A stretch of 64,000 nucleotides of DNA from Promethearchaeota archaeon (GTDB lineage Archaea > Asgardarchaeota > Lokiarchaeia > Sigyniarchaeales > SOKP01). A program made the position numbers and the translations under genes. The stretch spans positions 636,035 to 700,034 of the forward strand of contig JAHPZA010000010.1 of the NCBI GenBank assembly GCA_019058445.1, read 5' to 3'. This document shows, one piece after another, positions 8,826-43,106 of the stretch (its first letter is position 1; each line of letters begins with the position of its first letter). The notes under the pieces were generated by a model, which saw only the letters and a program-made list of their open reading frames with translations, had not been told where the DNA came from and did not search any database.

Positions 8826-10115
8826 ATGAACAATCGATTCATTGTGGATAAAAAAATTACAAATGAGTTTGTCGAAACTTATACAAAAACAACCTATAGG
8901 ATAATAGGCAAAGAAAGACATTCCGCAATTAAACCTTGCCACTGGTTAGAACAAAAATTGATGACGGGGAGGAACAATCGCAATTGTTATAAAGGTGTGT
9001 TTGGAATACAGAGCCATCGTTGCTTACAAAATTCACCATCTCTTCCTTTTTGCACTCATCAATGTGTTTTTTGTTGGAGAGATATAGAGAAAGAGGGGAT
9101 TGGAAATGAATTTTTGGTTGAACCAGATGAACCTGCATATTTAGTAGAAGAAATGATTCGTCATCAACAAGATATTATAAAGAATCACTTACCTCTAAGA
9201 AGATATCTTGATAATTATGAGATTATGAACGACGTACTTTATTTTATGTTAACTAATAAAGGAAACAACAGTATAAATTCTATTTCTAATAATGTTCATG
9301 TGAGTAAAAATAAAATAGAACGAGCTATGACATTATTGAAGAATCAAAAATTTATAATTCCAATTGATAGTTCATTAAACATTTTTAGGATTGATGAAGA
9401 TATAAGCTGTTGCATTGATTCAAGAGAAGAAATAGAGGATTTGATTAATCGAGAGCTAACTACACCAGATGAGATCATGCAAGCCCATGGTGAAGCTTTA
9501 CATCCTAACCATGCAGCAATATCTTTGGATGGTGAACCAATGTTATATCCTAACATGTCAGATTTTGTGAATGAGTTCAAGAAAAGGAATATGACAACCT
9601 TTATCGTAACTAATGGTACTTTACCAGAAGCAATAAATAAGTTAGTATCTTTACCAAATCAATTGTATCTGACTTTACCTGCTCCAAATGAAAAAATATA
9701 TAAAAAGACATGTCATCCAACTATTAAAAATGGTTGGAAAAAAATAATGGAATCATTAGAGATGATTAGTTCATTAGATTGCAGAACCTTAGTAAGATTA
9801 ACAGCAGTTAAAAACCTAAATGTAAGCGAGAAAATAATTAAAGAGTATATAAAAATTATAGAACAGGTTAATCCTAATTTTTTTGAAATTAAAGGATTTA
9901 CATTACAGGCTAAAGCACTTTCAATCAAAGAACGATTAAAGAGCGATAAGCCCCTCCAATACTTTTTTCCAGAATATGAGTATTTGAAAAAAATTGCCCT
10001 TATATTTGAAGAGTTAAGTAATTTTCCTTTAATTTATATAAATGAACCGAGTAGAGATTTTTTATTTGCAGTAAATTGGGAGAAAGAAAAGGATCCAAAA
10101 ATTGTAGCACCCTAG
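8826..10115 (+). CDS. taw1: 4-demethylwyosine synthase Taw1/TYW1 (radical SAM) with internal insertion
   Basis: HSAIKPCHW, CYK, SHRCLQ, CTHQCVFCWR, HAAISLDGEP, TFIVTNGT. Confidence 0.9.
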   Translation: MNNRFIVDKKITNEFVETYTKTTYRIIGKERHSAIKPCHWLEQKLMTGRNNRNCYKGVFGIQSHRCLQNSPSLPFCTHQCVFCWRDIEKEGIGNEFLVEPDEPAYLVEEMIRHQQDIIKNHLPLRRYLDNYEIMNDVLYFMLTNKGNNSINSISNNVHVSKNKIERAMTLLKNQKFIIPIDSSLNIFRIDEDISCCIDSREEIEDLINRELTTPDEIMQAHGEALHPNHAAISLDGEPMLYPNMSDFVNEFKKRNMTTFIVTNGTLPEAINKLVSLPNQLYLTLPAPNEKIYKKTCHPTIKNGWKKIMESLEMISSLDCRTLVRLTAVKNLNVSEKIIKEYIKIIEQVNPNFFEIKGFTLQAKALSIKERLKSDKPLQYFFPEYEYLKKIALIFEELSNFPLIYINEPSRDFLFAVNWEKEKDPKIVAP

Positions 10116-10220
10116 AAAATAAATTTCCATCTTGACTACTAAATTTTAAAGATAATATCGAGAGCTATTTAGGATAAATTCATAAGATTAAGATATGATT
10201 AAATACTTTATAGGTCAATC

Positions 10221-10829
10221 ATGTTTGTAGTCTGCTTCGATCTTGAAGGAGTTTTTACCCCAGAAATATGGATTACTGTAGCAGAAGCAACGGGAATAGA
10301 TGAACTAAAAATCACGACTAGAGAAGAACCTAATTACGATAAACTTATGAAGAAAAGGATAGAATTACTTAGATTAAATAAGATTAATCTTAAAGACATT
10401 CAGACTATCATATCAAAAATGGAATTATTACCTGGTGCTGAAGAATTTATGGGTTGGATTCGCTCAGTGGCTCAAGTTGCAGTAATTACAGACAATTATA
10501 AGGAATTTTTAATGCCATTGTTAAAGAAACTGGGATTTCCCCTTTGTTTTCATCATCAACTTGAAGTGGATGAAAATGGCATGATATCAAATTATCACTT
10601 AACAACGAAAGATATGAAAAAAAAGGCTGTACAGTTTTTTAGAGACATGAATTATAAAGTTATTGCCGTAGGTGATTCTTACAACGATATTGATATGTTA
10701 AAGGAAGCTGAACATGGGATATTATTTAAACCGCCACAAAATGTCATAGATGAATTTCCAGAGTTTCCTGTTGTAAATAATTATTCTGATTTTAAAGTGA
10801 TCTTATCAAATCATCTAAGAATTTCTTAG
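10221..10829 (+). CDS. thrH: phosphoserine phosphatase/homoserine phosphotransferase (HAD)
   Basis: CFDLEGVFTPEIW, TTREEPNYDKLM, VGDSYNDIDML. Confidence 0.9.
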   Translation: MFVVCFDLEGVFTPEIWITVAEATGIDELKITTREEPNYDKLMKKRIELLRLNKINLKDIQTIISKMELLPGAEEFMGWIRSVAQVAVITDNYKEFLMPLLKKLGFPLCFHHQLEVDENGMISNYHLTTKDMKKKAVQFFRDMNYKVIAVGDSYNDIDMLKEAEHGILFKPPQNVIDEFPEFPVVNNYSDFKVILSNHLRIS

Positions 10830-24469: not shown

Positions 24470-24847
24470 CTAATTTGAAATATTTAAAATATTCTTTACT
24501 ATTTCTCTAAATTCAGCAACTTTAATTGGTTTTGATATATAATCATTAAAACCCGCTGCTAAAATTCTTTCTTTATCTCCCTTCATTGCAAATGAAGTAA
24601 CAGCAATGATCGGAATTTCTTTAAATTTATTAATTTTTCGAAGTTCTGTACAGATATCAATACCACTAATTTCTGGTAATTGAATATCTAAGATTACTAG
24701 ATCGGGTTTTCCAGATTTAATTAATTCTAAGCCAGTATCACCTCGAGTTTCAGAAAAAATTTCTACTTCTGGGATTAATTTCAAAATGGCTAAAAAGAGT
24801 TTCATATTTTTCTCATTATCTTCGATAACATATACTTTTTTTTTCAT
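24470..24847 (-). CDS. single-domain response regulator (DivK/CheY-like)
   Basis: IEDNE, LDIQLP, AVTSFAM.GD, YISKP. Confidence 0.93.
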   Translation of the reverse strand: MKKKVYVIEDNEKNMKLFLAILKLIPEVEIFSETRGDTGLELIKSGKPDLVILDIQLPEISGIDICTELRKINKFKEIPIIAVTSFAMKGDKERILAAGFNDYISKPIKVAEFREIVKNILNISN

Positions 24848-29701: not shown

Positions 29702-32449
29702 TCAAATCAAATTCAGAAATTCATCTACTGAAAATTCTTCAATTTTTATATTCTTTGGAATAGTAAATGTAAAAGTTGTCCCGACACCTAATTTACTTGT
29801 AAAAAAAATATTTCCACCATGAAGATTCACTAATCTCTTGGTTAGCGATAACCCTAAACCAGTACCAGGCAATGAATTTGTGTAAGGATTATTAACTCTT
29901 TTGAAGTCTTTGAAGATTATATCAAAATATTTTTCTGGAATACCAATACCTGTATCTTTAACCTTAAATATCCAATTCTCTTTATCTTCTTCGACAATAA
30001 TTGTAATTTTTCCTTCTAATGTGAACTTTATTGCATTATCAAGTAAATTATAAAGAATTTCCTTAAACCTCAAAGGATCAGCTGTAATTTCTTTTTTACT
30101 TTTTAATCCTTTCAACTTAATCTTAATATTCTTCTTTGAATATTCTGGTTTGAAAGTTGATAAAACTTGTTCTATTATTGAATTTAAAGAAAAAATCTTA
30201 GTGTTTAATGTCGTCTCTCCTGCCTCGATTTTTGAAATATCTAAAATGTCTTTTACCATGTCAAATTGATGCTGAGCTGAAGATTTGATATCATTTACAA
30301 ATTGAAGTTGTTCTTGGTTTAAAGGGCCATATACTTCTTCTAAGAGCAAGTCAGTAAATCCTATAATTGCGTTTAAGGGAGTTCTTAGTTCATGAGACAT
30401 AGTCGCTAAAAATTCATTTTTTATTTGTGAAGCTCTAAGTATTTCATCTAAATATTTTTTTTGCTGGTCTAAAGCTCGTTTAAGCTCTTTAGTTCTGATT
30501 ACTACTTCTTCCTCTAATTGTTCCTTAAATCTTTCTTCTAAGAGTTCAGCTCTTTTTCGTTGAGTTATATCTTTAGCTATCCCAAAAAATCCTATTTTTG
30601 TTCCTTCTGAATCATACATTAAGGAGATTGAAATTTCGATAAATTTTTTTTTTTTATTCTTAGTTTTAATTTTATATTCAAAATTCTTGACTGATTTTTC
30701 GGTTTTATAAACTTCATTAAACTGAGTGAAAACCTTCTCTTTAGTAGAATAATCTAAATATTCTCTATAATTCATATTCCTTAATTCTTCTTTGGGGTAT
30801 TCAAAAATATTACATAATGACTCGTTAAAGAATATGAAATCTCCTCTTAAATCAACTTCATAATATCCTTCTTTAATATTATTCAAAATTTTTCGATATT
30901 TCTCTTCAGATTCTTTTAATTGTACCTCAGCATTTTTTTGGTCAGTTATATCAATAATATTAATTAAATCCGCATAATGTCCTTGAAATTGGATTGATTT
31001 AGAATAATTATCAATCCATTTCACTATTCCTTTTTTCGTTAAAATTTTAGACTCATAATGAATTATAGCATCTGAAGTACCTTGTTGCTTTATTGCAGCT
31101 TGTTTCGACACAAAATCTCGAAATTCTGGATGGATAATTTTAATCCATTCATCTGAGCCCCAACCCATTATCTCCTGAACGCTATATCCGCATATAGAGG
31201 CAAAATAATGATTTATATATATAAAGTTATTATTTTGTAGTATTGCTATTCCCATCAGAGATTGTTCAGTTATAATTCTAAATTTTTCTTCAGAATCTCT
31301 AAGATCATTCTCTGCTTTCTTTTGCTCATAAATCCTGCCTAAAAATTCAGCAATAGCATTAATAAGGTCTAATTCTTCTCTTAAAAAAGGTCTTTGTTCA
31401 GATTCTTGTATATCTTTTAGATAATATACTTCCACAGTACCAATTTTTTCTCCCTTTACTTTGATTTCAGCGATATGTTTCCATTCTGTTTCCACAAAAT
31501 TGTCGTTTTTAAATTCCCCTCCTTTAATTATGATTTTACAACATATTTCATTGGGAAATTGGAAAGCAGGCAGAATTAAATCGAGAGTTCTTTGAAATAT
31601 TTCTTCTATTGGAAGATCATTATTTTCAATTAGTTTTGATAATCCATATAAACAAGTAAGTTCTTTTACACTTTCTTTTAATTTACTTTCCAGCTCAAGT
31701 TGTTTAGTAATATCTTTTATCGTCCCTTCCACTTCCAATGGATTTCCCTTTAAATCGCGTATTAGATGCGCGTTTATTTCAACGGTTATTGTTTTTCTAT
31801 TTGGTGTTTTAATTTTAGCGATAAAATTTTTTATGTATCCATTTCGCTCTAATTCTTCATAATATTGTTCTTGTGTTTTAGAACCAACTAAAAACTCAGA
31901 TGCTTTTGCTCCCACTAAACTTACTGATGGATCCAGACCTAAAATACTATTTAATTGTTGATTATGAATGAGCAGCTTTCCCTTGAACTCACCTTTATAA
32001 AATCCCACGTCTAAATTTTTAATTATATTTTTGAGGTTTTCTTCGGATTTTTGTAATAATTCTTCCAAATTCTTCTTTTTAGTAATATCCTCTGCCATTT
32101 CAAAACGAACCTTCCGTCCGTCATCCCAAATTATTGCTTGATCAATAATATGAAACCATTTACCGACTTTTTCGTTATAAAAATCAAAAATAAATGGAGA
32201 TTTTGGTCTTTTACTGAATAAAAGTCTATTGGTACAAAAAGAACAAGGTTCATTAAATTCATGAAATACTTCATAGCATTTTTTACCTATAATATCTCCT
32301 GGAACATATTCGTTCGTTTTATTATTCACATAAAGAATCTCATAAGAATTCGGATCTGAGATATAGACTAGTTGTTCAAAATTATCAAAAATCGCTTTAA
32401 ATTTCTGATCTCCTTGAATTTCAAAATTTTTTGTTTTATTCTCTTTCAA
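29702..32449 (-). CDS. multi-PAS/GAF sensor histidine kinase
   Basis: 4 PAS domains (first has GKKCY...PCSFC), a GAF-like segment, MSHELRTPLN, HATPase. Confidence 0.95.
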   Translation of the reverse strand: MKENKTKNFEIQGDQKFKAIFDNFEQLVYISDPNSYEILYVNNKTNEYVPGDIIGKKCYEVFHEFNEPCSFCTNRLLFSKRPKSPFIFDFYNEKVGKWFHIIDQAIIWDDGRKVRFEMAEDITKKKNLEELLQKSEENLKNIIKNLDVGFYKGEFKGKLLIHNQQLNSILGLDPSVSLVGAKASEFLVGSKTQEQYYEELERNGYIKNFIAKIKTPNRKTITVEINAHLIRDLKGNPLEVEGTIKDITKQLELESKLKESVKELTCLYGLSKLIENNDLPIEEIFQRTLDLILPAFQFPNEICCKIIIKGGEFKNDNFVETEWKHIAEIKVKGEKIGTVEVYYLKDIQESEQRPFLREELDLINAIAEFLGRIYEQKKAENDLRDSEEKFRIITEQSLMGIAILQNNNFIYINHYFASICGYSVQEIMGWGSDEWIKIIHPEFRDFVSKQAAIKQQGTSDAIIHYESKILTKKGIVKWIDNYSKSIQFQGHYADLINIIDITDQKNAEVQLKESEEKYRKILNNIKEGYYEVDLRGDFIFFNESLCNIFEYPKEELRNMNYREYLDYSTKEKVFTQFNEVYKTEKSVKNFEYKIKTKNKKKKFIEISISLMYDSEGTKIGFFGIAKDITQRKRAELLEERFKEQLEEEVVIRTKELKRALDQQKKYLDEILRASQIKNEFLATMSHELRTPLNAIIGFTDLLLEEVYGPLNQEQLQFVNDIKSSAQHQFDMVKDILDISKIEAGETTLNTKIFSLNSIIEQVLSTFKPEYSKKNIKIKLKGLKSKKEITADPLRFKEILYNLLDNAIKFTLEGKITIIVEEDKENWIFKVKDTGIGIPEKYFDIIFKDFKRVNNPYTNSLPGTGLGLSLTKRLVNLHGGNIFFTSKLGVGTTFTFTIPKNIKIEEFSVDEFLNLI

Positions 32450-32537: not shown

Positions 32538-35066
32538 TTAAATATTATCTTTAGTTTTTTCAATTTTGGGTATTGTGAAGTGGAATGTAGTTCCTACACC
32601 AAATTTACTTTTATACCATATTTCTCCTCCATGTAAATTAATGATTCGTTTAGTTACTGCTAATCCTAATCCTGAACCAGCTACGTTTTTCAATTTGTCA
32701 TTCTCTATTCGACCAAATTCTCTAAAAACAACATCATTATCCTCATCTTCAATTCCAACACCCGTATCTTCTACTTGAAATTCCCAATGATCCCTCCTTT
32801 CAAAAGCTTTTAAATTAATATAACCTTCATTAGTAAATTTTATAGAATTATCGATGAGATTATATAAAACTTGTTTAAATCTTAAAGGATCCGCGCTGAT
32901 AACAGTATTTTGGTTAATTCCTTCAACATTAAATTCTAGATTTTTTCGAATATATAGAGGTTCTGTTATAGATTTAATTTCTTGGATAATGGGCCATAGT
33001 TCAAAATCAGTTATATTTAATTCAAATTTACCTGCATCGATTCTCGACAAATCCAATATACTGTTTATTATATTTAAAAGGTGTTCTCCCGCTTGATATA
33101 TATCCTTTAAAAAGGTTTTTTGCTGTTTATTAGTATTTCCATATCCATCTTCTAAGAGTAATGAAGAAAATCCTAAGATTGCATTTAAAGGAGTTCTTAA
33201 TTCATGAGAAACTGTAGCTAGAAACATAGACTTAAATTCTAATGATGAAATTAACTCATCAAGTAACAATTCTCTACGTCTTTCGTAATTTTTACGTTCA
33301 GAAATATTAGAAAAAAAAGATTGTATAATAAGATTTTCTGCAATTTTAATGATTGTGGAAGAAATTTCAACATCAATTAACTTCCCTGTTTTTGTTTTAA
33401 TTGATGCCTCAAATGAATTTTTTGTGGTTAAATCATAGATATCTTCGTTAAAATGTTTATGTGCTATTTCAAGGTATTTTGGATCAAAGATATTAAGAAT
33501 TTTATAATTTAATAGTTCATCATCATATTCTAATAAGTCCTTTGCAGCTTCATTTGCTCTGAGTATCTTTCCACTATTATCTATTAAAAAGATTGCTAAA
33601 GGAGCATGCTCAATTAATGCATTCATCTCATGAAGTGTTTGCTCAAGTCTTCGTACTATTCTTTCTGATTCTTTGAGCTCAGTTATATCTAAGGCAGTGA
33701 TTTGAATTGCATATATGGTTCCTGACAAATCTTTAAGTGGTTGTTCATCAACTAAAAAGCATTTATTTCCTGTAAAATATTCATAAGTTTCTTCATATGA
33801 GTTCCCTATTCCTGTTTCAAAGATCTTAAGATAAGAATTAAAGCGCTTTTCTGCAACTTGGGTTGGAAATACATCAAATAAAGATTTTCCAATGAAGCCA
33901 TCTGGTACTCCACCTAAATCTTTAGCTGCTTTTTTATTAACAACTAAAAATATACCATTTCTATCTATACTCATAATACTGGATTCAGAATGCTCAATTA
34001 AATTTTTATATTTCATTTCGGATTCTTTTAAGGCCAATTCAGCTATTTTTCGTTCTGTAATATCCATAGCATAAACATTTACATAATGTACCTCGGGAAC
34101 TGGTGTAATCGTTAGCGAATAAAATTGTGTATTAAATTGGAGTTCCATTTGTTTATTTGTCCGAGTCATTATCGCTTCATTAATAGGAGTTCTTAGGAGT
34201 TTAGGAACAGCACTTCCTTTTTCTATATTGAACCATCTCTTTGCTGCAGGATTAGCATAGATAATAATACCATCAGTTGCTCTCAAAACAGGATTAGGAT
34301 CTTCAGAAGGAAATTTAGCGATGCTTTTTATTTTTTCTTCTGCTTCTTTGCGAATTGAGATATCTCTGATAGTAACTAAATTTGCTTCAGAATTTTCCCA
34401 TAAAATTCTTGCTGAGTTCATCTCAGCATGAATAATCCGTCCATCTTTCTTAGGAATTTTAATCTCAGTTTTATTTTCAAGGCTAATTGGATAACCAAAA
34501 GATTGATCTATAAAGTTATTTCGTTCTCTATCAAATAATTTTTCTGCTGCATTATTTACAAATTGCACAATCCCTTGATCATTGATTATTGCAATCCCGT
34601 CCGCATTTCCATCTATAATATTTCTTAGTTGCTCTTGACTCTTCTGAAGGGTCGTTGCTAATAATTCTATGGTTTGCTTCATTTTTTGCCTATCTATTGC
34701 ATGAATGATAGCTCTTGCTAAAATATTTCCCGTTATCGTCCCTTTTATTAAGTATTCCTGAGCACCTACCTGAACCGCCTTTTTAGCAATATTTTCATCT
34801 TTAACTCCCGTTAAAACAACAATAGGTAAATTTTTAACTTTATCACGAGTTTTAATTATAGTATCGATTCCCCTACAATCAGGAAGAATTAAATCTAAAA
34901 GAATAACATCCGACTTATACTTCTCGATTTTTTTAAAACCAGTAGTAAGATTTTTAGCTATGATTAACTTATAATAAAAATTGCTATTATCTTTAAGAAG
35001 TTCTTCAATTAAACGAATATCTCCCGGATTATCTTCAATTAATAAAATATTTATTGTTTCGTTCAT
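32538..35066 (-). CDS. hybrid histidine kinase (REC - multi-PAS - HisKA - HATPase)
   Basis: [34 protein letters not shown]. Confidence 0.95.
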   Translation of the reverse strand: [842 protein letters not shown]

Positions 35067-35210: not shown

Positions 35211-35930
35211 TTACAGAGTAGATTGAGAATTCATTTTTAATGCATTATGAATAGTTACAATGAGTTTTTCACAGAGGAATGGTTTTTCAATAAAATCTAT
35301 TACACATAAAGAGAATATTTCCTCCTTTATACTATTATATGCTGTCGTAAAGATTATCTTTGAATCTTGATCTATATTTAAAATCATTTTTGCTGTTTTA
35401 ATACTATTTTGCATTGGCATTCGATGTTCTATTAAAAATGATAGATTCATTGTGATTAACATAGTTTATTTCAAAAAAGCTCTTAATTTTCTCATCTTTA
35501 TGTTTAAAATAGGATAATCCAATAAAATCGATTTTGAAAAGGAAATACTATTATTTTACATTGGTTCATCCTAAGATCCTTTTGAAGAATGAATACTTTT
35601 ATAAAATATTTATAAATGTACTCTAACGAATTCCTAACATCAAATATGCAAATTGCTATGGAAATATTGTTAAATAATTTTATTTCTGAAGAAAACCATA
35701 TATCGTTTTCTTCCCCGACTAAACAAAATATCTCAAAATGATTATTGCAATATAAATATAAATTCGAATTTTTCTCTTTTGTAGGCTCATGTGAAGAATT
35801 TATTAATTTGAGAGGATTTGCTATCTCAAAAATTACCTTCTTGATTGTTGTCTTTCCTGCTAAAGGTGGTTTTGTTAATACAATTTTAACACTTTTTCTT
35901 TTATTAAGGTTTAAGAGACTAATCTTTTTG
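35211..35930 (-). pseudogene. decayed Rag-like GTPase joined to a receiver-domain remnant
   Basis: KIVLTKPPLAGKTTIKKVIFE...EPTK...EENDIWF...FKID with a frameshift, then HRMP...KIIFTTA...DFIEKPF. Confidence 0.7.
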
Positions 35931-35978: not shown

Positions 35979-36620
35979 TTACTTTACGATTGAGTCCTTT
36001 AACTTATTTTCAACTGCTATTATAATATCATTACACGAATCTAGCATCATTTCTATATAAGATACGACAATATCATCAGATAATTTTCCGTTTATCCTTT
36101 TTTCCTCTAAGATTAACTCGCAAAAACCTTGAATCGTATTTACTCCACTCCGAATTTGAAGATTAACTGATTCTAAAGGCAATAAATCAGCTTTATTTAT
36201 ATAAATTTCATTTATTTGCTCAATAAATTTTTTAAAATAATCCTCATCATCATTCAGAATTTTTTTGGTTCCGATTTTATGAAACATCATTTCTATCCTT
36301 TTAAAATGGAGAATCGGAATTAAAGGATTTTCAACGTGTCTTAATAATATAATAGCATAAAGTTGCTTTCCACCTCTTGCTGTGCTATCCTTTACTTCAA
36401 TTTTACATACTTGAGAATAAAATTGATTAAAATCTAAGATCACAAATTTGTTTTTTGTATTTAACGCGTCTCTAAGAAGATTTCGAACGAATTCTTCATC
36501 TTTGATGGGTACCGATGAGTAGAGTGCTCTTGGGCCTAAAATTTGATCGTATTTCCCAATAATAGTAATAAAAGGAAATATATTTAGGTGTTCTTTGAAA
36601 TTTTTATATATCTCAATCAA
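35979..36620 (-). CDS. longin/uDENN-like domain fused to a His-less HisKA (DHp)-like hairpin
   Basis: IIGKYDQILGPRALY...RGGKQLYAIILL; VNLQIRSGVNTIQGFCELILE aligns with [21 protein letters not shown]. Confidence 0.65.
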   Translation of the reverse strand: MIEIYKNFKEHLNIFPFITIIGKYDQILGPRALYSSVPIKDEEFVRNLLRDALNTKNKFVILDFNQFYSQVCKIEVKDSTARGGKQLYAIILLRHVENPLIPILHFKRIEMMFHKIGTKKILNDDEDYFKKFIEQINEIYINKADLLPLESVNLQIRSGVNTIQGFCELILEEKRINGKLSDDIVVSYIEMMLDSCNDIIIAVENKLKDSIVK

Positions 36621-37007: not shown

Positions 37008-38507
37008 TTGAGTAAAAAAATCGTTTTTATTGGTCCTCCCGAAGCTGGAAAAACTACTCTCAGAAAAATTTTTTTTGAAGGAGAAAATCGCAAAGAGCTC
37101 TTAGAACATGCATTAGAGCCTACCCATGGGCAAGAAACAATTATAGTTAAATTAAAGCAGGACATCGGAGTTTTCGATTTAGCGGGGCAAGAAAACCAAA
37201 GATGGTTTGAAACTGAAGATAAATCCATCTTTGATAATACCGAAATACTTATTGTAGTAATTGATATTACATCACCGATGCAAGAAATATTAGAGTTTAT
37301 CACAAAAATTATAAATATTAGAGATGAATTAACGCCCTCCTCATTTATTTTTTTATTATTACACAAAAAAGATTTACTTACTCGTGAAAAAATTTCTGAC
37401 ATCAAATTAAAACTTATACGAGAATTAAGAAGAATTTCCCGATTGAAAATTGCCTTTACTAGCATTAAGAAGAAGTATTTTCTTGAAACTCTTTCTTTAT
37501 TTATGGAAATACTAAAACTATGTACTTCAATGATTAGCGGTAAAGAAAGAAAAAATTTAGATTTAGTAGAGGACTTAATAAATATTCTTTATTTAATCAA
37601 TAAAGATGTTGTTATTTCTAAATCTGATTTATCTAATATGTTTAAATTAGATGAAAAAGCCTTAGATAATTTAATAATAATCTTAGAAAAGAAGAATTAT
37701 ATTAAAATTACAAAAACACATGATTATCCATTATACAGTTTAACTGACCAGGGTAAGCTGTATTTTGAAGAAATTTTAAAAGAATTTACTGAAGAGGGAT
37801 TTAAATTAGAAACTTGCTTATTTGAAACAAAAATGGAAGAGAAAAGTGCGCCACCTTTTCTAGGATTTATGATTGCTGATAAGGATGGAAAAACTTTACT
37901 AACTTCCGAGGTCTATGAAGGAGTTTTTAATGATTTTTTTCAAACTAAGAATGATGAGATGCAACCAGATCATGACCTGATTCCTATGTTTATAAATGCT
38001 TTAGAAAAATTTTCAACAGAGATTAACATTAAAGATTTATCAGGATTTAAGTTAAAAGGAACAAACATTAAAATGCAAACCTTTCGGTATGACTTGATTA
38101 CTGTCACCCTATTTATGAACGCAGATACTAATATAAAATCGCCTAAAGATGAAATAAATACATGGTTTAATAATCTTTTTACTACACATGAAAAAAAATT
38201 TGAATATAGTATTTTAACTGGAGATATAAGTCAGATAGTTCAAATTCATAATGATGGAACAAATTGGTTAAAAAAATTAAATGAAGAATATAAAGAAAAG
38301 GCGATAAATCTACAGATTTTTGATTTCAGACAAGCTACCGATTTATATGAGAAATTGGAACATATTTCAAGTCGAGTTAAAGTTTCTCATTCTATTCTTA
38401 TTCAAAAAATTAAAAATTTAAAAAACAATCTAATGAAAGCCATATATGCTGAAGATTTTCAAGAAATACGCGAGATAGCTAAAACTTCCAGTGATTTAAA
38501 AATATAA
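37008..38507 (+). CDS. Rag/Gtr-like GTPase - wHTH - roadblock/longin-like domain
   Basis: GPPEAGKTT, PTHG, DLAGQE, HKKD; LTDQGK; PPFLGFMIADKDGK. Confidence 0.8.
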   Translation: MSKKIVFIGPPEAGKTTLRKIFFEGENRKELLEHALEPTHGQETIIVKLKQDIGVFDLAGQENQRWFETEDKSIFDNTEILIVVIDITSPMQEILEFITKIINIRDELTPSSFIFLLLHKKDLLTREKISDIKLKLIRELRRISRLKIAFTSIKKKYFLETLSLFMEILKLCTSMISGKERKNLDLVEDLINILYLINKDVVISKSDLSNMFKLDEKALDNLIIILEKKNYIKITKTHDYPLYSLTDQGKLYFEEILKEFTEEGFKLETCLFETKMEEKSAPPFLGFMIADKDGKTLLTSEVYEGVFNDFFQTKNDEMQPDHDLIPMFINALEKFSTEINIKDLSGFKLKGTNIKMQTFRYDLITVTLFMNADTNIKSPKDEINTWFNNLFTTHEKKFEYSILTGDISQIVQIHNDGTNWLKKLNEEYKEKAINLQIFDFRQATDLYEKLEHISSRVKVSHSILIQKIKNLKNNLMKAIYAEDFQEIREIAKTSSDLKI

Positions 38508-38684: not shown

Positions 38685-39932
38685 GTGTTAAAAGAAGTAA
38701 AATTGGAGAAAATCTCAAAATTGTTAGATCCTGATGTAGTAAATATTAAAACAATTAATCAAGTTGGTAAATTACCAATCTCTTCTTTAAAATTCCTATC
38801 TCTCCAAGATGAAGTTATAATTAAAGACTTATTGGGAGTTTCAAAGATTGCAGATTGTATTAAATTGGATAGGCAAAACCCTTTTAAAAAAATAAGTAGA
38901 TCGAAGCAAAAAAAGGCTAAACTTTCAAAGATTATCAAAGAAGACCTTGAGTTTGAAGAAAAAATCAAACAAGCCATAACTATGAGTTTTATTATACAAA
39001 AAATAATGAGAGAATCAGCTACAAAGAAGAAGAAAGATCAAAAAATTATTGTTGTTGGACTAAATAACGCTGGTAAAACAGCTATTTTATCTCAATTTGG
39101 AGGTAAGTTAGGGATTAAAGATCTTGCTTTACTAAAACCAACCAGGGGAGTACATCGACAAGAAATTAGCACAAAAGATTTAAATCTTCATATATGGGAT
39201 TTTGGAGGGCAAGAGGATCACAGGAAAGAATATCTTGACACGCCTGAAGAATATTTTTTTGGGATAGACTTGATCATATATGTTATTGATATTCAAGACA
39301 CTGAGAGATATGATGAGAGTATTAAGTATTTTAAAAATATTATTGAAAATGTAATAAAATTAGAAGAAACTGCCCATGTTTCAATATTTATCCATAAGGT
39401 GGACCCAGATATTAGAGATGACAATGAAGTTTTACTTAATGTTGAATTGGTAAAAGATTCAATTAGAACCATTTTTCAAAATGTACAGCTCAATTATGAT
39501 ATATACTTAACATCGATTTTCTCCATGATTTCAAGAGAACCTCAGTTCTCTAAATTTATTAAAGATGTTATGGCCGATACTGCTAACCTAACAGATCCTA
39601 CAGCCCTTAAAGTGAGTGAGTTGGGGAATATAATAGAGAAGGCGCTTAATGCTGTAATTCAGCTAAGTTCAGGTATGGTGGCCCTCGAGAAGAGGATAGA
39701 AAGCCTCGAACACCCGAGACGAGGAAGAACAACCAAAAAAGCAACTCAAGAGCAACTACCTACACCAGAAGTCTCAAAATCAGTAGTACCTCTACCACCA
39801 CCTCCCCCGCCACCAAAAGGAACTTCAGCTCCAGTTCCTCCGAAAGAAGGCCCTGGAGTAAGATCAGCATTGATGTCCGAGTTAAAGGATATTTTTGTTA
39901 AAAAAGGGATATATCGTGAATATGAGATGTAA
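38685..39932 (+). CDS. Arf/Rag-like GTPase with coiled coil, polyproline and WH2-like tail
   Basis: GLNNAGKT, PTRG, WDFGGQE, HKVD; PLPPPPPPPKG...VRSALMSELK. Confidence 0.8.
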   Translation: MLKEVKLEKISKLLDPDVVNIKTINQVGKLPISSLKFLSLQDEVIIKDLLGVSKIADCIKLDRQNPFKKISRSKQKKAKLSKIIKEDLEFEEKIKQAITMSFIIQKIMRESATKKKKDQKIIVVGLNNAGKTAILSQFGGKLGIKDLALLKPTRGVHRQEISTKDLNLHIWDFGGQEDHRKEYLDTPEEYFFGIDLIIYVIDIQDTERYDESIKYFKNIIENVIKLEETAHVSIFIHKVDPDIRDDNEVLLNVELVKDSIRTIFQNVQLNYDIYLTSIFSMISREPQFSKFIKDVMADTANLTDPTALKVSELGNIIEKALNAVIQLSSGMVALEKRIESLEHPRRGRTTKKATQEQLPTPEVSKSVVPLPPPPPPPKGTSAPVPPKEGPGVRSALMSELKDIFVKKGIYREYEM

Positions 39933-39991: not shown

Positions 39992-40888
39992 TCAAACATT
40001 ACTCGAGACCTTGTTCAAGTTAGAAAAAATATAAATAATTTGAAGTCCATCATTAAATTTATTTTCAAAAATCTTTTTTTCTTCACTTTCTAAACCGAGT
40101 TTAAACCATTTAGCCCTATTAGTCAGATAAAATGAAAATGGTTCTAATATAGGATGTTCAATAAATCCCATATGTTCTAATCTTTTTAGATGATAACGGA
40201 CTTCCTTAGAGTTAAGTTTAAAATAATTTTCAATGTCATCATGATAATAATTTATTGAGGGTGTAACCTTTAGAATAATTGATAATTCGACTTTTAAATT
40301 GACAAAGTCTCTTTGACTAGGTTTAATCGAATTTTCATTGAATATCTCATTAAAAATATTAAAAAACACAGTATATGATTCAAAAAAAAAACCTTTTGTA
40401 ATAGATGTTTCATAGATCGGGATTAATCGTTTATTTAAATTTTGAAGTTGTAATTGTTTATATAAAAAATTAATAACAGTATGGGAATAAGTAGGAGTTA
40501 CTAGGTCTACTTTATGTAGTAAAACAACGAGATTACATGCATAAAGCTGTATTTGCTCCATTAAATTTAGGACTTTTTTAAAAAAATGCAACATTGATTC
40601 TAATGGACTAGTAATATCAAACACGCAAATAATAAGATTACTTCCTTTAAAAATGTCTGATTCTTTTAAAAACCATATCTCGTTTTCTTGACCAGCTAAA
40701 TCGAATATTCCAAGATCCCAAGTGAAGAGAGAAAATCTATTTGAATTTACTCCTTTTGTTGGTTCTATTGACTTTTGTAAAAGCTTAATAGGATTCGCCA
40801 TTTCAAAAAATACCTTTTCTATGGTGGTTTTCCCAGAATTTGGTGGTCCTATTAATGTAATTTTCCTCCTAATCGATTTTACTTTCAA
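39992..40888 (-). CDS. Rag-like GTPase with C-terminal wHTH
   Basis: GPPNSGKTT, PTKG, DLAGQE, HKVD, ETSI; EVRYHLKRLEHMGFIE. Confidence 0.8.
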   Translation of the reverse strand: MKVKSIRRKITLIGPPNSGKTTIEKVFFEMANPIKLLQKSIEPTKGVNSNRFSLFTWDLGIFDLAGQENEIWFLKESDIFKGSNLIICVFDITSPLESMLHFFKKVLNLMEQIQLYACNLVVLLHKVDLVTPTYSHTVINFLYKQLQLQNLNKRLIPIYETSITKGFFFESYTVFFNIFNEIFNENSIKPSQRDFVNLKVELSIILKVTPSINYYHDDIENYFKLNSKEVRYHLKRLEHMGFIEHPILEPFSFYLTNRAKWFKLGLESEEKKIFENKFNDGLQIIYIFSNLNKVSSNV

Positions 40889-41150: not shown

Positions 41151-43106
41151 TCATAGTTTTTTAGGTATAGAAAAAGTAAAAGTTGTACCAACTCCTAGAA
41201 CACTAAAAAATGTTATCTCACCTCCATGTAAATTAACTAATCTTTTAGTCAACGATAACCCTAATCCAGTACCAGGAACAGAACGAACATATGAGGAGTC
41301 AACCCTTTTAAATTCTTTAAAAATTAAGTCAAAATCTTTACGGGCAATTCCTATCCCATCGTCTCTTACTTTAATTAACCAATGATCATATTTTTCTTGA
41401 ACCACAATAGAAATAATTCCCTTCGCTGAAAATTTAATTGCATTACTTACAAGATTTAAAAGTATTTCTTTGAACCTTATAGGATCAGCAAATATTTCCT
41501 TCTCACTATCTAAACCTTTAATTTTAAATTTAAGACCTTTCTTTTTGTAAAGAGCCCTTACTGATGATTTGATCTGATTTACCATATTATTTAATGAAAA
41601 CTTTTGAATATTTAAGACTATTTGGCCAGCTTCAATTTTAGAGATATCTAAAATATGCTTTATCATATCAAATTGATATTCTGCTGATGACTTAATATCA
41701 TTAAGATATTCTAATTGCTCATCATTTAGTTCACCATATACCCCTTCTAATAGTAAATCTGTAAATCCGATAATGGCATTTAACGGAGTTCTTAATTCAT
41801 GAGACATCGTAGACATGAACTCTGTTTTAAATTGAGAAGATTTTAAGATTTGATCAAGGTATAACTTTTGTTGCTCGAGAGCATCATTTAATTCTTTTGT
41901 TCTATTTTGTACTTCTTTTTCTAATTCTTCCTTGAACTGTTGTTCCAAAAGTTCACCTTTTTTTTTTTCGGTTATATCTTGGAAGATAAATTGTAACAAC
42001 ATACGTTCTCCAATTTTAAATGAAGACGCTTGAAGATTAACCCAAATTGATCTAGAATCATTATTTTCGATTTGTATTTCAATTGGTTCGGGATATTCAC
42101 CTTTGAAGGAAGCTTGAAAAATCTGTTTAAAATAAGGTTTAATTTCATTGGGAAAAATTTCTGTTAAATCGTATATATTTTTGCCGATGAGATAATCCTT
42201 ATTAAAGCCTAATAATTTATTTGATGTAGTATTAGTATCAACAACTATTCCCTCAAAATCTATTAGTAGTATAGCGCTTGGGGAATTTTCAAATAAATTC
42301 TTGTATTTCTCTTCAGCTAATTTTCGTTCGGTAATATTTCGAAGTATAACTAACCATTTTAATTCACCTTTCTTGTTGTAATAGGTATTACCTCGACAAT
42401 CGAACCAAATCCAATTTTGATCTTTATGTTTAAATCGTAATTCGATTTTCTGCCCATCAATTTTAAATCTTTTATTAAAGGTATCAAGTGCAGTCTCAAT
42501 GTCATCAGGATGAATATAATTTAAAACTGAATTATCTATAACATCTTTTACACCATACCCTAAAAGTTTAAAAAAGATGTGTTCATTGATATATTCAAAT
42601 TCATATTCATCATTTAAGACATAAATCAAATCATTAACATTTTCTGTAATTCTACGGTAAGTCTCTTCACTTTCTAATAACTCTTGTTCAGCTTTTTTTT
42701 GATTAGTAATTTCTTTTAGAAACACCACAATTTTAAGATTCTTTTCTTTATCTTTAAATGACTTACCTCTTATTTCAAACCAAGGATATCCTCCATCTTT
42801 GTGTTTTAATCTTACTTGTAAAGGATTGGTATTACTTATAATTTCACATTTTGTAATATTTACATCATTATTAACATCATCAGGATGAACAAGAGATAAT
42901 AATGGATTTCCTATGATATCGTCTTTTGAATATCTTAAATTTTTCTCAAAGGCATATTCATTAATGAATTCAAATTCATAATCTTCATTTAAAATTGAAA
43001 TCAAATCATTGGTATTTTCAAATATAAATTTATATTTTTCATATAAATTAACAAAATCAGAAGCTTTCTCTTCAATTTTGTCTTTATCTTTAAAAGCCTC
43101 GTTCAA
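41151..43106 (-). CDS. PAS domain sensor histidine kinase
   Basis: 3 PAS domains, MSHELRTPLN, NLVSNAIKF, GTGLGL. Confidence 0.95.
   Translation of the reverse strand: MNEAFKDKDKIEEKASDFVNLYEKYKFIFENTNDLISILNEDYEFEFINEYAFEKNLRYSKDDIIGNPLLSLVHPDDVNNDVNITKCEIISNTNPLQVRLKHKDGGYPWFEIRGKSFKDKEKNLKIVVFLKEITNQKKAEQELLESEETYRRITENVNDLIYVLNDEYEFEYINEHIFFKLLGYGVKDVIDNSVLNYIHPDDIETALDTFNKRFKIDGQKIELRFKHKDQNWIWFDCRGNTYYNKKGELKWLVILRNITERKLAEEKYKNLFENSPSAILLIDFEGIVVDTNTTSNKLLGFNKDYLIGKNIYDLTEIFPNEIKPYFKQIFQASFKGEYPEPIEIQIENNDSRSIWVNLQASSFKIGERMLLQFIFQDITEKKKGELLEQQFKEELEKEVQNRTKELNDALEQQKLYLDQILKSSQFKTEFMSTMSHELRTPLNAIIGFTDLLLEGVYGELNDEQLEYLNDIKSSAEYQFDMIKHILDISKIEAGQIVLNIQKFSLNNMVNQIKSSVRALYKKKGLKFKIKGLDSEKEIFADPIRFKEILLNLVSNAIKFSAKGIISIVVQEKYDHWLIKVRDDGIGIARKDFDLIFKEFKRVDSSYVRSVPGTGLGLSLTKRLVNLHGGEITFFSVLGVGTTFTFSIPKKL

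Follow-up and report, generated by a model that had tools for sequence, protein, structure and literature searches.

We examined a 64,000-nucleotide stretch of the genome of a Promethearchaeota archaeon of the class Lokiarchaeia (GenBank assembly GCA_019058445.1, contig JAHPZA010000010.1, positions 636,035 to 700,034 of the forward strand), which we refer to as the window. Our subject is a gene in the window that encodes a protein of 213 residues, in which a longin domain resembling those of the GTPase-activating proteins (GAPs) FLCN, NPRL2, and SMCR8 is joined by a short linker to a C-terminal helical hairpin resembling the HisKA/DHp domain of histidine kinases (Table 1). We refer to it as the longin-hairpin gene. 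The window is AT-rich, with a G+C content of 26 to 30% around the gene, and the start position of its open reading frame (ORF) is shared by its homologues, some of which use ATG. In total, 307 homologues of similar length were identified (60 to 87% identity), all of them annotated as hypothetical and with record names pointing to Promethearchaeota/Lokiarchaeia; in a library of 1.8 billion representatives, the family formed 27 clusters at 50% identity. The genome itself carries one copy. The ORF is a real gene, and its product is a two-domain protein confined to one order of Lokiarchaeia. Residue counts and conservation were taken over 204 family sequences, and Pfam was scanned with 30 members. 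A search for longer fused forms returned only members of the same family of 224 to 275 amino acids, and the finding that none of 8000 candidates scored was an ATPase-bearing version is weak evidence. A feature search of the ESM Atlas returned only the family's own cluster (0.99) and a weak cluster bearing HisKA (0.87), which we treat as a mere lead.

A sequence-only reading of the window, made without database searches, had described the product as a longin/DENN-like domain fused to a HisKA hairpin without its histidine or an ATPase domain, and had suggested that it bridges two types of signalling. The peptides that it quoted were present, IIGKYDQILGPRALY and VNLQIRSG...SCNDII in the longin-hairpin ORF and the kinase peptide in the ORF at positions 41151 to 43106. 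The claimed alignment of the C terminus with the neighbouring kinases was borne out by hhalign, in which the C-terminal profile of the family matched five kinases of the window (P, 1.1e-4), six histidine-less HisKA repeats of a protein that we call P0144 (P, 4.4e-10), and the two sets combined (P, 2.7e-9). In this register, residues N153-L154-Q155-I156-R157 lie on the S-H-E-L-R of the kinases, and Leu154 takes the place of the phospho-His, as had been read. Across the family, this position is occupied by Leu in 160 sequences, Met in 38, Ile in 4, and Lys and His in 1 each. No match to HATPase_c was found in the ORF, which ends at residue 213, directly after the hairpin, in agreement with the claim that an ATPase domain is missing. 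Pfam HisKA (PF00512) matched 8 of the 30 members below threshold. When the archaeon's own genome was searched with the hairpin profile, histidine kinases made up 8 of the 12 best matches below threshold and were matched at the H-box (hypergeometric p of ∼1e-14). By these sequence comparisons, the likeness to the H-box exceeds chance.

Conservation within the hairpin was uneven. Helix 1 near the former H-box is its most conserved part, and helix 2 is variable except at core residues. R157, N161, and F166, which stand at positions H+3, H+7, and H+12 relative to the former histidine, are invariant; S158, G159, N161, T162, G165, and F166 are at least 95% conserved and are not named among the residues of the modelled dimer interface described below. 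The hairpin is descended from the HisKA/DHp domain of a histidine kinase, with loss of the phospho-acceptor His and without an ATPase domain, and we consider the identities of both domains (longin and HisKA-derived hairpin) very likely to be correct. The hairpin also holds two cysteines, C167 in 191 and C196 in 203 of the 204 sequences, at positions where the kinases have none; they fall in neighbouring layers of the core of the modelled four-helix bundle and may form a redox or metal site.

The N-terminal domain was characterized mainly by its predicted structure. An AlphaFold2 monomer model built from 30 family members (pLDDT, 80.7; pTM, 0.68) shows a short N-terminal helix followed by the order beta-beta-alpha-beta-beta-beta-alpha-alpha-alpha at residues 18 to 140, which is a five-stranded longin fold, and then an ill-defined linker (pLDDT of <50 at residues 143 to 150). 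In Foldseek, the top matches were FLCN (8dhb_J) and the longin subunits of GATOR1/SEA. The best matches in VIA-align were GATOR1 chains (Z, 13.4; root mean square deviation, 2.8 Å; 131 residues), with residues 14 to 144 of the model placed onto residues 5 to 143 of the chain; chains spanning this range were taken to be NPRL2. VIA-align also recovered yeast Npr2 (SEA chain S; Z, 12.1), the lokiarchaeal roadblock-longin protein 8yqg (Z, 12.1), FLCN (Z, 11.7), and generic longins, including VAMP7, Sec22b, sigma-adaptins, and TRAPP (Z, 8 to 10.5). A shape search of the ESM Atlas led to clusters of NPRL2, FLCN, and C9orf72 and to a Heimdall cluster with Pfam Folliculin. Sequence identity to the eukaryotic longin GAP subunits was 8 to 16%. 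Neither a DENN domain nor an NPRL2-specific domain follows the longin, and the C terminus of the model is instead a 63-residue helical hairpin. Of the longin/DENN-like N terminus proposed earlier, the longin part therefore stood, as a longin of FLCN/NPRL2 type with GP and Arg motifs, and the DENN part did not. The sequence-only reading also survived the check that had been proposed for it, whether the predicted structure has a longin fold and a DHp-like hairpin, on the evidence of the monomer model, VIA-align, and the dimer model.

PMC12290439 gives a GP motif ahead of strand beta-2 together with an arginine finger as the signature of the GAP longins FLCN, NPRL2, and SMCR8, and reports that non-GAP longins lack this signature whereas some Asgard longins have it. 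In our model, G29-P30 precedes the strand at residues 29 to 35, and Arg82 sits between the strands at residues 67 to 77 and 85 to 95. We compared the family by hhalign with 12 Asgard proteins that score above the Pfam Folliculin cut-off; the two were aligned over 118 columns (P, 1e-4), and the GP and D-x-x-A-R-G-G motifs of both coincided. Human FLCN (...D-S-L-A-R(164)-G-F...) and NPRL2 (...Y-S-R(78)-N-A...) fit this pattern. We regard these conserved motifs as stronger indications of the longin type than the Pfam Folliculin score.

Other relatives of the protein were informative about the hairpin. Two distant paralogues, P0129 (locus L058, in the same metagenome-assembled genome as locus L042) and P0134 (locus L059), are flanked by kinases with receiver (REC) and PAS domains. 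Both lack Arg82, and both carry S-H-[HK]-[VI]-R exactly on the S-H-E-L-R of the kinases; to judge from these alignments, they are the clearest sign of the hairpin's descent from kinases. By analogy, each could combine a longin with a phosphotransfer protein of the Spo0B kind. We rejected such a His-bearing, Arg-less paralogue as a general FNIP/NPRL3-like partner of the longin-hairpin protein, since among 154 genomes of the order a true copy was found in a single one. In P0135 and P0136 (loci L054 to L057; 388 to 391 amino acids), a PAS domain and an extra His-less, H-box-like helix precede the longin-hairpin module, and a divergent gene for a Gtr1/RagA-type GTPase of 472 to 475 amino acids is kept ∼140 to 330 bp off. 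Type III CRISPR-Cas genes lie beyond the divergent GTPase gene at these loci. P0144 (556 amino acids), found on a 4-kb contig of Logan accession ERR11563597, matched the whole longin-hairpin protein in phmmer. Its six tandem HisKA-like hairpins (Pfam HisKA, 1.6e-37) all have Phe at the phospho-His position (S-F-[KN]-[LI]-R), and they make up a distinct class of DHp repeats without histidine.

Two full-length copies of the protein were modelled together in three runs, with 3 controls. The ipSAE was 0.64 (runs, 0.63 to 0.66), and the best control reached 0.00. In calibration, 20 of 30 proteins solved as one-chain pairs and 1 of 23 solved as single chains reached the mark used for ipSAE, and the pass of the hairpin may mirror its likeness to the many DHp dimers that have been solved. 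The runs shared at least 97% of contacts, with a partner pLDDT of at least 82. The interface is symmetric (163-163, 185-185, and 192-192) and is formed only by residues 153 to 207, which are placed in the a/d register as in a DHp four-helix bundle. On the strength of this model, two copies probably pair through the hairpin as a DHp-like four-helix bundle, so the dimer would present two longin domains.

Table 1. Features of the longin-hairpin gene and of its neighbours in the window
Feature	Coordinates	Strand	Basis or occurrence
Longin-hairpin gene, 213 amino acids plus stop (longin, linker, His-less DHp hairpin)	35979..36620	-	ORF, TTG start
Longin domain, FLCN/NPRL2/SMCR8 type, residues 15-140	36201..36578	-	AlphaFold2 topology, VIA-align, Foldseek, sub-threshold Pfam Folliculin
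GP motif, G29-P30, just ahead of strand beta-2	36531..36536	-	204/204 members
Arg82 (codon AGA) of D-S-T-A-R-G-G in the beta4-beta5 loop, candidate arginine finger	36375..36377	-	202/204 members
Linker, residues 141-149	36174..36200	-	K143 and P148 invariant; conserved L-P-L-E reaching E150
DHp-like helical hairpin, residues 150-212 (helices 150-177 and 182-212)	35985..36173	-	AlphaFold2, hhalign
H-box remnant, N153-F166 (NLQIRSGVNTIQGF)	36123..36164	-	hhalign register
L154, at the phospho-His position	36159-36161	-	hhalign register
C167	36120-36122	-	
C196	36033-36035	-	
Decayed copy of the 298-residue GTPase-winged-helix gene	35546..35887	-	tblastn, 44% identity over 114 amino acids, E 1e-28
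83-residue ORF, C-terminal receiver half	35211-35462	-	Pfam Response_reg positions 47-110, sub-threshold
REC-PAS-HisKA-HATPase hybrid kinase, downstream on the same strand	32538..35066	-	
Second PAS-HisKA-HATPase kinase, same direction	29702..32449	-	
499-residue Rag/Gtr1-like GTPase, divergent from the longin-hairpin gene	37008..38507	+	
415-residue Rag/Gtr1-like GTPase	38685..39932	+	Closest to the divergent upstream neighbour in 23-25 related loci
Intact 298-residue Rag/Gtr1-like GTPase with winged helix	39992..40888	-	Orthologue of the co-directional downstream neighbour, 27 loci

In the window, the longin-hairpin gene is followed on the minus strand by a decayed GTPase gene, a receiver fragment, and two PAS kinases; on its other side, it adjoins three genes for GTPases of Gtr1/RagA type (Table 1). 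The decayed copy has a stop codon and has lost the P-loop Gly, the G3 Asp, and the G4 motif. It fills the slot that holds an intact GTPase in most relatives, and the intact copy lies 3.4 kb off, in what was recorded as the opposite orientation. The short ORF between the decayed GTPase and the hybrid kinase is probably the remnant of a receiver. A stand-alone receiver is encoded elsewhere in the window, at positions 24470 to 24847.

We then considered the same neighbourhood in 49 species-level genomes, with a distance limit of 3 kb. A GTPase gene was found within this distance of the longin-hairpin gene in 41 of the 49, a kinase gene in 38, and both in 31 (counts from related genomes, which are not independent); at random places in the archaeon's own genome, the corresponding frequencies were 6.7%, 5.1%, and 0.6%. 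The pattern persisted across genera at 50 to 70% protein identity. In the commonest order, a divergent GTPase of 490 to 500 amino acids lies ∼200 bp upstream, and the longin-hairpin gene is followed by a GTPase of 290 to 300 amino acids and two kinases; the gap to the downstream GTPase, which is of the 298-residue type, is 4 to 30 bp. In several genomes, kinase genes directly flank the longin-hairpin gene on both sides, and in MK-D1 (locus L046, orthologue at positions 10001 to 10588) the order is receiver, longin-hairpin gene, kinase. A conserved operon that also encodes Rag-like GTPases, PAS kinases, and receivers, together with the PAS-fused variants, thus lends strong genomic support to the earlier suggestion that the protein links two signalling types. 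Taken together, what the sequence-only reading had observed was confirmed in every particular, and its interpretation was partly supported. In about one-third of loci, the divergent GTPase gene is followed directly, on the same strand and after ∼200 bp, by a gene for a stand-alone receiver. This arrangement was seen at loci L009 to L011, L013, L018 to L020, L022, L036, L038, and L043. Since the receiver recurs beside the divergent GTPase, this pairing is conserved in its own right.

Among 400 Asgard genomes, the family was found in 67, all of them from one order (53 of 134 genomes in taxonomic family f1, 12 of 14 in f3 with mostly weak matches, and 1 of 4 in f4), and no member was found in these genomes outside that order. 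With 53 of 134 genomes of its family and 0 of 9 congeners carrying it, the gene is ruled out as a core gene of the lineage and is therefore an accessory signalling module. Within the taxonomic family, an orthologue of the 298-residue GTPase was present almost only in genomes with the longin-hairpin gene, and none was found in nine congeneric genomes (G167 to G175). The two genes appear to have been gained or lost as a unit.

We tentatively propose, at somewhat less than an even chance, that the longin-hairpin protein works as a dimer, regulates the adjacent Rag-like GTPases in the manner of a GAP, and docks a receiver on its conserved H-box face. In this proposal, the pair of longins would bind the Rag/Gtr1-like GTPases encoded alongside, with the orthologues of the genes at positions 39992 to 40888 and 38685 to 39932 as the candidates. 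We judge a direct regulatory action on adjacent GTPases to be somewhat more likely than not. Arg82 could act as a finger that speeds GTP hydrolysis by the bound GTPase; we judge GAP activity through this residue to be somewhat less likely than not. The longin homodimer would be a forerunner of the FLCN-FNIP and NPRL2-NPRL3 pairs. The exposed H-box face (R157, S158, N161, T162, G165, and F166) may dock the receiver of the co-encoded set of PAS kinases and receivers. In the Caulobacter pseudo-histidine kinase DivL, which has Tyr at the His position, mutation of R553, T557, or Y562 (H+3, H+7, and H+12) abolishes binding of DivK~P (PMC4211667). The suggestion of docking arises because R157, N161, and F166 correspond to these residues, and it is rather doubtful. 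The state of the phosphorelay would then gate the GTPase switch, much as DivL reads DivK~P. That the protein is a physical coupler in the full sense, with a hairpin that reads receiver phosphorylation and switches an Arg82-dependent GAP acting on the adjacent Rag-like GTPases, is unlikely.

It is important to note several points that weigh against this proposal. For the family as a whole, the GTPase partners, the GAP chemistry, and the receiver docking are all things that we infer. Longin domains act mostly as guanine nucleotide exchange factors (GEFs) or platforms and seldom as GAPs. The ranges aligned with eukaryotic structures allow, and do not prove, the equivalence of Arg82 to FLCN R164 and NPRL2 R78. 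Pfam Folliculin (PF11704) scored 17.7 bits over residues 62 to 116, a stretch that includes Arg82, against a cut-off of 23.3; at an E value of ≤1 it matched all 30 members, every one below threshold (best, 3.8e-5), and also 8 of 14 control genomes. Pfam Folliculin alone is therefore weak, and we do not lean on it. A search of the PDB with the protein sequence returned no kinase, FLCN, or NPRL2, and neither did a search with family profiles of each half, although these profiles are narrow (60 to 87% identity) and their empty result says little. In the hairpin, the acid-base/phosphatase motif of kinases is altered, with E replaced by Q155 and T by S158. The former His position also lies one helical turn past the linker, and because it is so near the linker, the conserved H-box face may instead pack on the protein's own longin or on a GTPase. 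The kinship of the genomes compared for gene order tells on the same side, and so does the absence of the longin-hairpin gene from the nine congeneric genomes (G167 to G175), three of them 91 to 99% complete, searched with three queries.

Four other explanations were weighed, and we name them in order of decreasing probability. In one, which we consider somewhat unlikely, the hairpin is purely structural and dimerizes the longins in place of the DENN contacts of FLCN-FNIP, and the kinases and receivers belong with the gene to one co-regulated signalling island and make no physical contact with its product. The dimer model uses only the hairpin, the core positions fit the DHp heptad register, and the genes paired most tightly with it are those for GTPases (a gap of 4 to 30 bp, and the divergent GTPase is kept even in the PAS-fused variants), all of which would suit a plain dimerizer. 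However, such a dimerizer would be expected to tolerate change at its surface, and the exposed H-box residues S158, G159, N161, T162, G165, and F166 are conserved at ≥95% while exposed helix 2 varies; the PAS-fused variants and the His-bearing paralogues also suggest a signalling role. A less probable explanation, and one that we would not favour, is that the longin is not a GAP. Like most longin and roadblock proteins, it would instead be a GEF or a platform for the neighbouring GTPases, or would partner them much as an effector does, with Arg82 in a structural or binding role. It is consistent with the Z scores of generic longins (8 to 10.5) and of the lokiarchaeal roadblock-longin protein 8yqg (12.1), with Pfam Folliculin matches that are only sub-threshold, and with two distant paralogues that keep the rest of the protein without the Arg. 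Against it stand GP in 204 of 204 and Arg82 in 202 of 204 sequences, marks which PMC12290439 reports to be absent from non-GAP longins, and the first rank of NPRL2, Npr2, and FLCN in three structure searches.

The remaining two explanations give the hairpin a role within two-component signalling. As the sequence-only reading had also suggested, the pseudo-DHp might pair with kinases, entering mixed four-helix bundles with the DHp of the neighbouring PAS kinases; it would so inhibit those kinases or recruit them to the GTPases. Its H-box resembles that of the operon kinases and in several genomes its gene stands directly between two kinase genes, but a confident symmetric homodimer was predicted and the near-invariant core residues C167 and C196 differ from those of the kinases, and we judge mixed dimers to be improbable. 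Even less probable is a receiver sink or a phosphatase-like two-component modulator in which the longin serves for localization only. The alignment register and the DivL data set R157, S158, and N161 at HisKA positions for receiver docking or phosphatase activity, yet in the E-x-x-T/N motif Q155 takes the place of E and S158 that of T.

The protein can be compared with several known systems. It resembles DivL in having a DHp without His, with the docking-face positions H+3, H+7, and H+12 invariant here as R157, N161, and F166. DivL, which links two signalling pathways, has retained its PAS and CA domains and acts as a regulator of the kinase CckA; unlike in DivL, the hairpin here is fused to a GTPase-regulator domain, and its binding of a receiver would follow by analogy. 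Spo0B-type phosphotransferases have no working kinase domain, and their DHp-like four-helix bundle carries the His. The likeness to them lies in a stand-alone dimer of DHp-type hairpins, here a predicted one, that would meet receivers. Because Leu occupies the His site, the longin-hairpin protein cannot relay phosphate as Spo0B does.

Actinobacterial conservons comprise the kinase-like sensor CvnA, the roadblock protein CvnB, CvnC, and the GTPase CvnD, and in Myxococcus MglA and MglB act with the receiver protein RomR. These systems share with the locus studied here a kinase or receiver component, a regulator of the roadblock/longin superfamily, and a Ras-superfamily GTPase. In conservons and MglA/MglB, however, each part is a protein of its own, a roadblock protein serves as the regulator, and the GTPases are MglA-like; in the longin-hairpin protein, a kinase remnant and a longin with GP and Arg share one polypeptide, and the GTPases are Rag-like. 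RomR-RomX and MglB are mentioned in 10.1101/2022.03.17.484758. Among eukaryotic proteins, FLCN (acting on RagC/D), NPRL2 of GATOR1 (RagA/B), and SMCR8 of C9orf72-SMCR8 (Arf) share the longin, the GP ahead of beta-2, and the loop Arg, and compared with their targets, the neighbouring genes here encode Gtr1/RagA-type GTPases. These three form heterodimers with FNIP, NPRL3, and C9orf72, whereas a homodimer through a kinase-derived hairpin is predicted here. They also have a DENN or an NPRL2-specific C-terminal domain, which the longin-hairpin protein lacks, and its GAP activity is putative.

The family belongs to a kind that earlier papers have outlined. Liu et al. (2020, bioRxiv 10.1101/2020.10.19.343400) describe many Asgard fusions of an NPRL2-like longin with two-component domains and surmise that two-component systems remain at the core of Asgard growth regulation. 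PMC12290439 raises as a question the GAP activity of Asgard longins with the GP motif and their Rag or Arf-like partners. Within the available texts of both sources, we saw neither the 213-residue family, its loss of the His, and its predicted DHp-type homodimer nor the operon with two particular Rag-like GTPases and the His-bearing, Arg-less paralogues. Our literature search found no paper that joins Asgard, histidine kinase, longin, and Rag. New here are those paralogues, the dimer interface at residue level, the comparison of exposed-face conservation with the mutants of DivL, the alignment with Asgard FLCN-like proteins that score above the Pfam cut-off, the decayed copy of the GTPase gene, the co-occurrence with the 298-residue GTPase, and the absence from congeners.

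These results touch on the origin of the Rag GTPase-GAP nutrient circuitry and on which Asgard GTPase fits which regulator. In MK-D1, small-GTPase genes generally share no operon with longin or roadblock genes, and the rarity of GTPase-regulator operons makes the pairings hard to predict (Tran et al., PMC10933270). The longin-hairpin family is an exception, with a GAP-type longin gene beside two Rag-like GTPase genes in ∼40 species, including the cultured MK-D1, and it names concrete sets of GTPase, regulator, and receiver for assay. The His-less hairpin would offer a defined route for bacterial-type phosphorelays into a eukaryote-like GTPase switch, a connection that Liu et al. only surmise. 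If the protein is a true coupler, it would represent a prokaryotic forerunner of the nutrient-regulated Rag GAPs GATOR1 and FLCN-FNIP, with two-component input in place of the eukaryotic sensors. If the hairpin only dimerizes, the protein would still offer a small model, in homodimeric form, for the heterodimers of longin GAPs.

The Asgard NPRL2/FLCN-like longins of Liu et al. and PMC12290439 are from the same phylum and have the same longin subtype as the family described here. In the archaeon's own genome, Pfam Folliculin gave sub-threshold matches only. Among them were ORFs of 293 and 473 amino acids outside the window (G000:C10:378001-378375, minus strand, and G000:C3:122660-122836, plus strand), which scored 22.1 and 21.2 bits, respectively, and may be further FLCN-like longin proteins.

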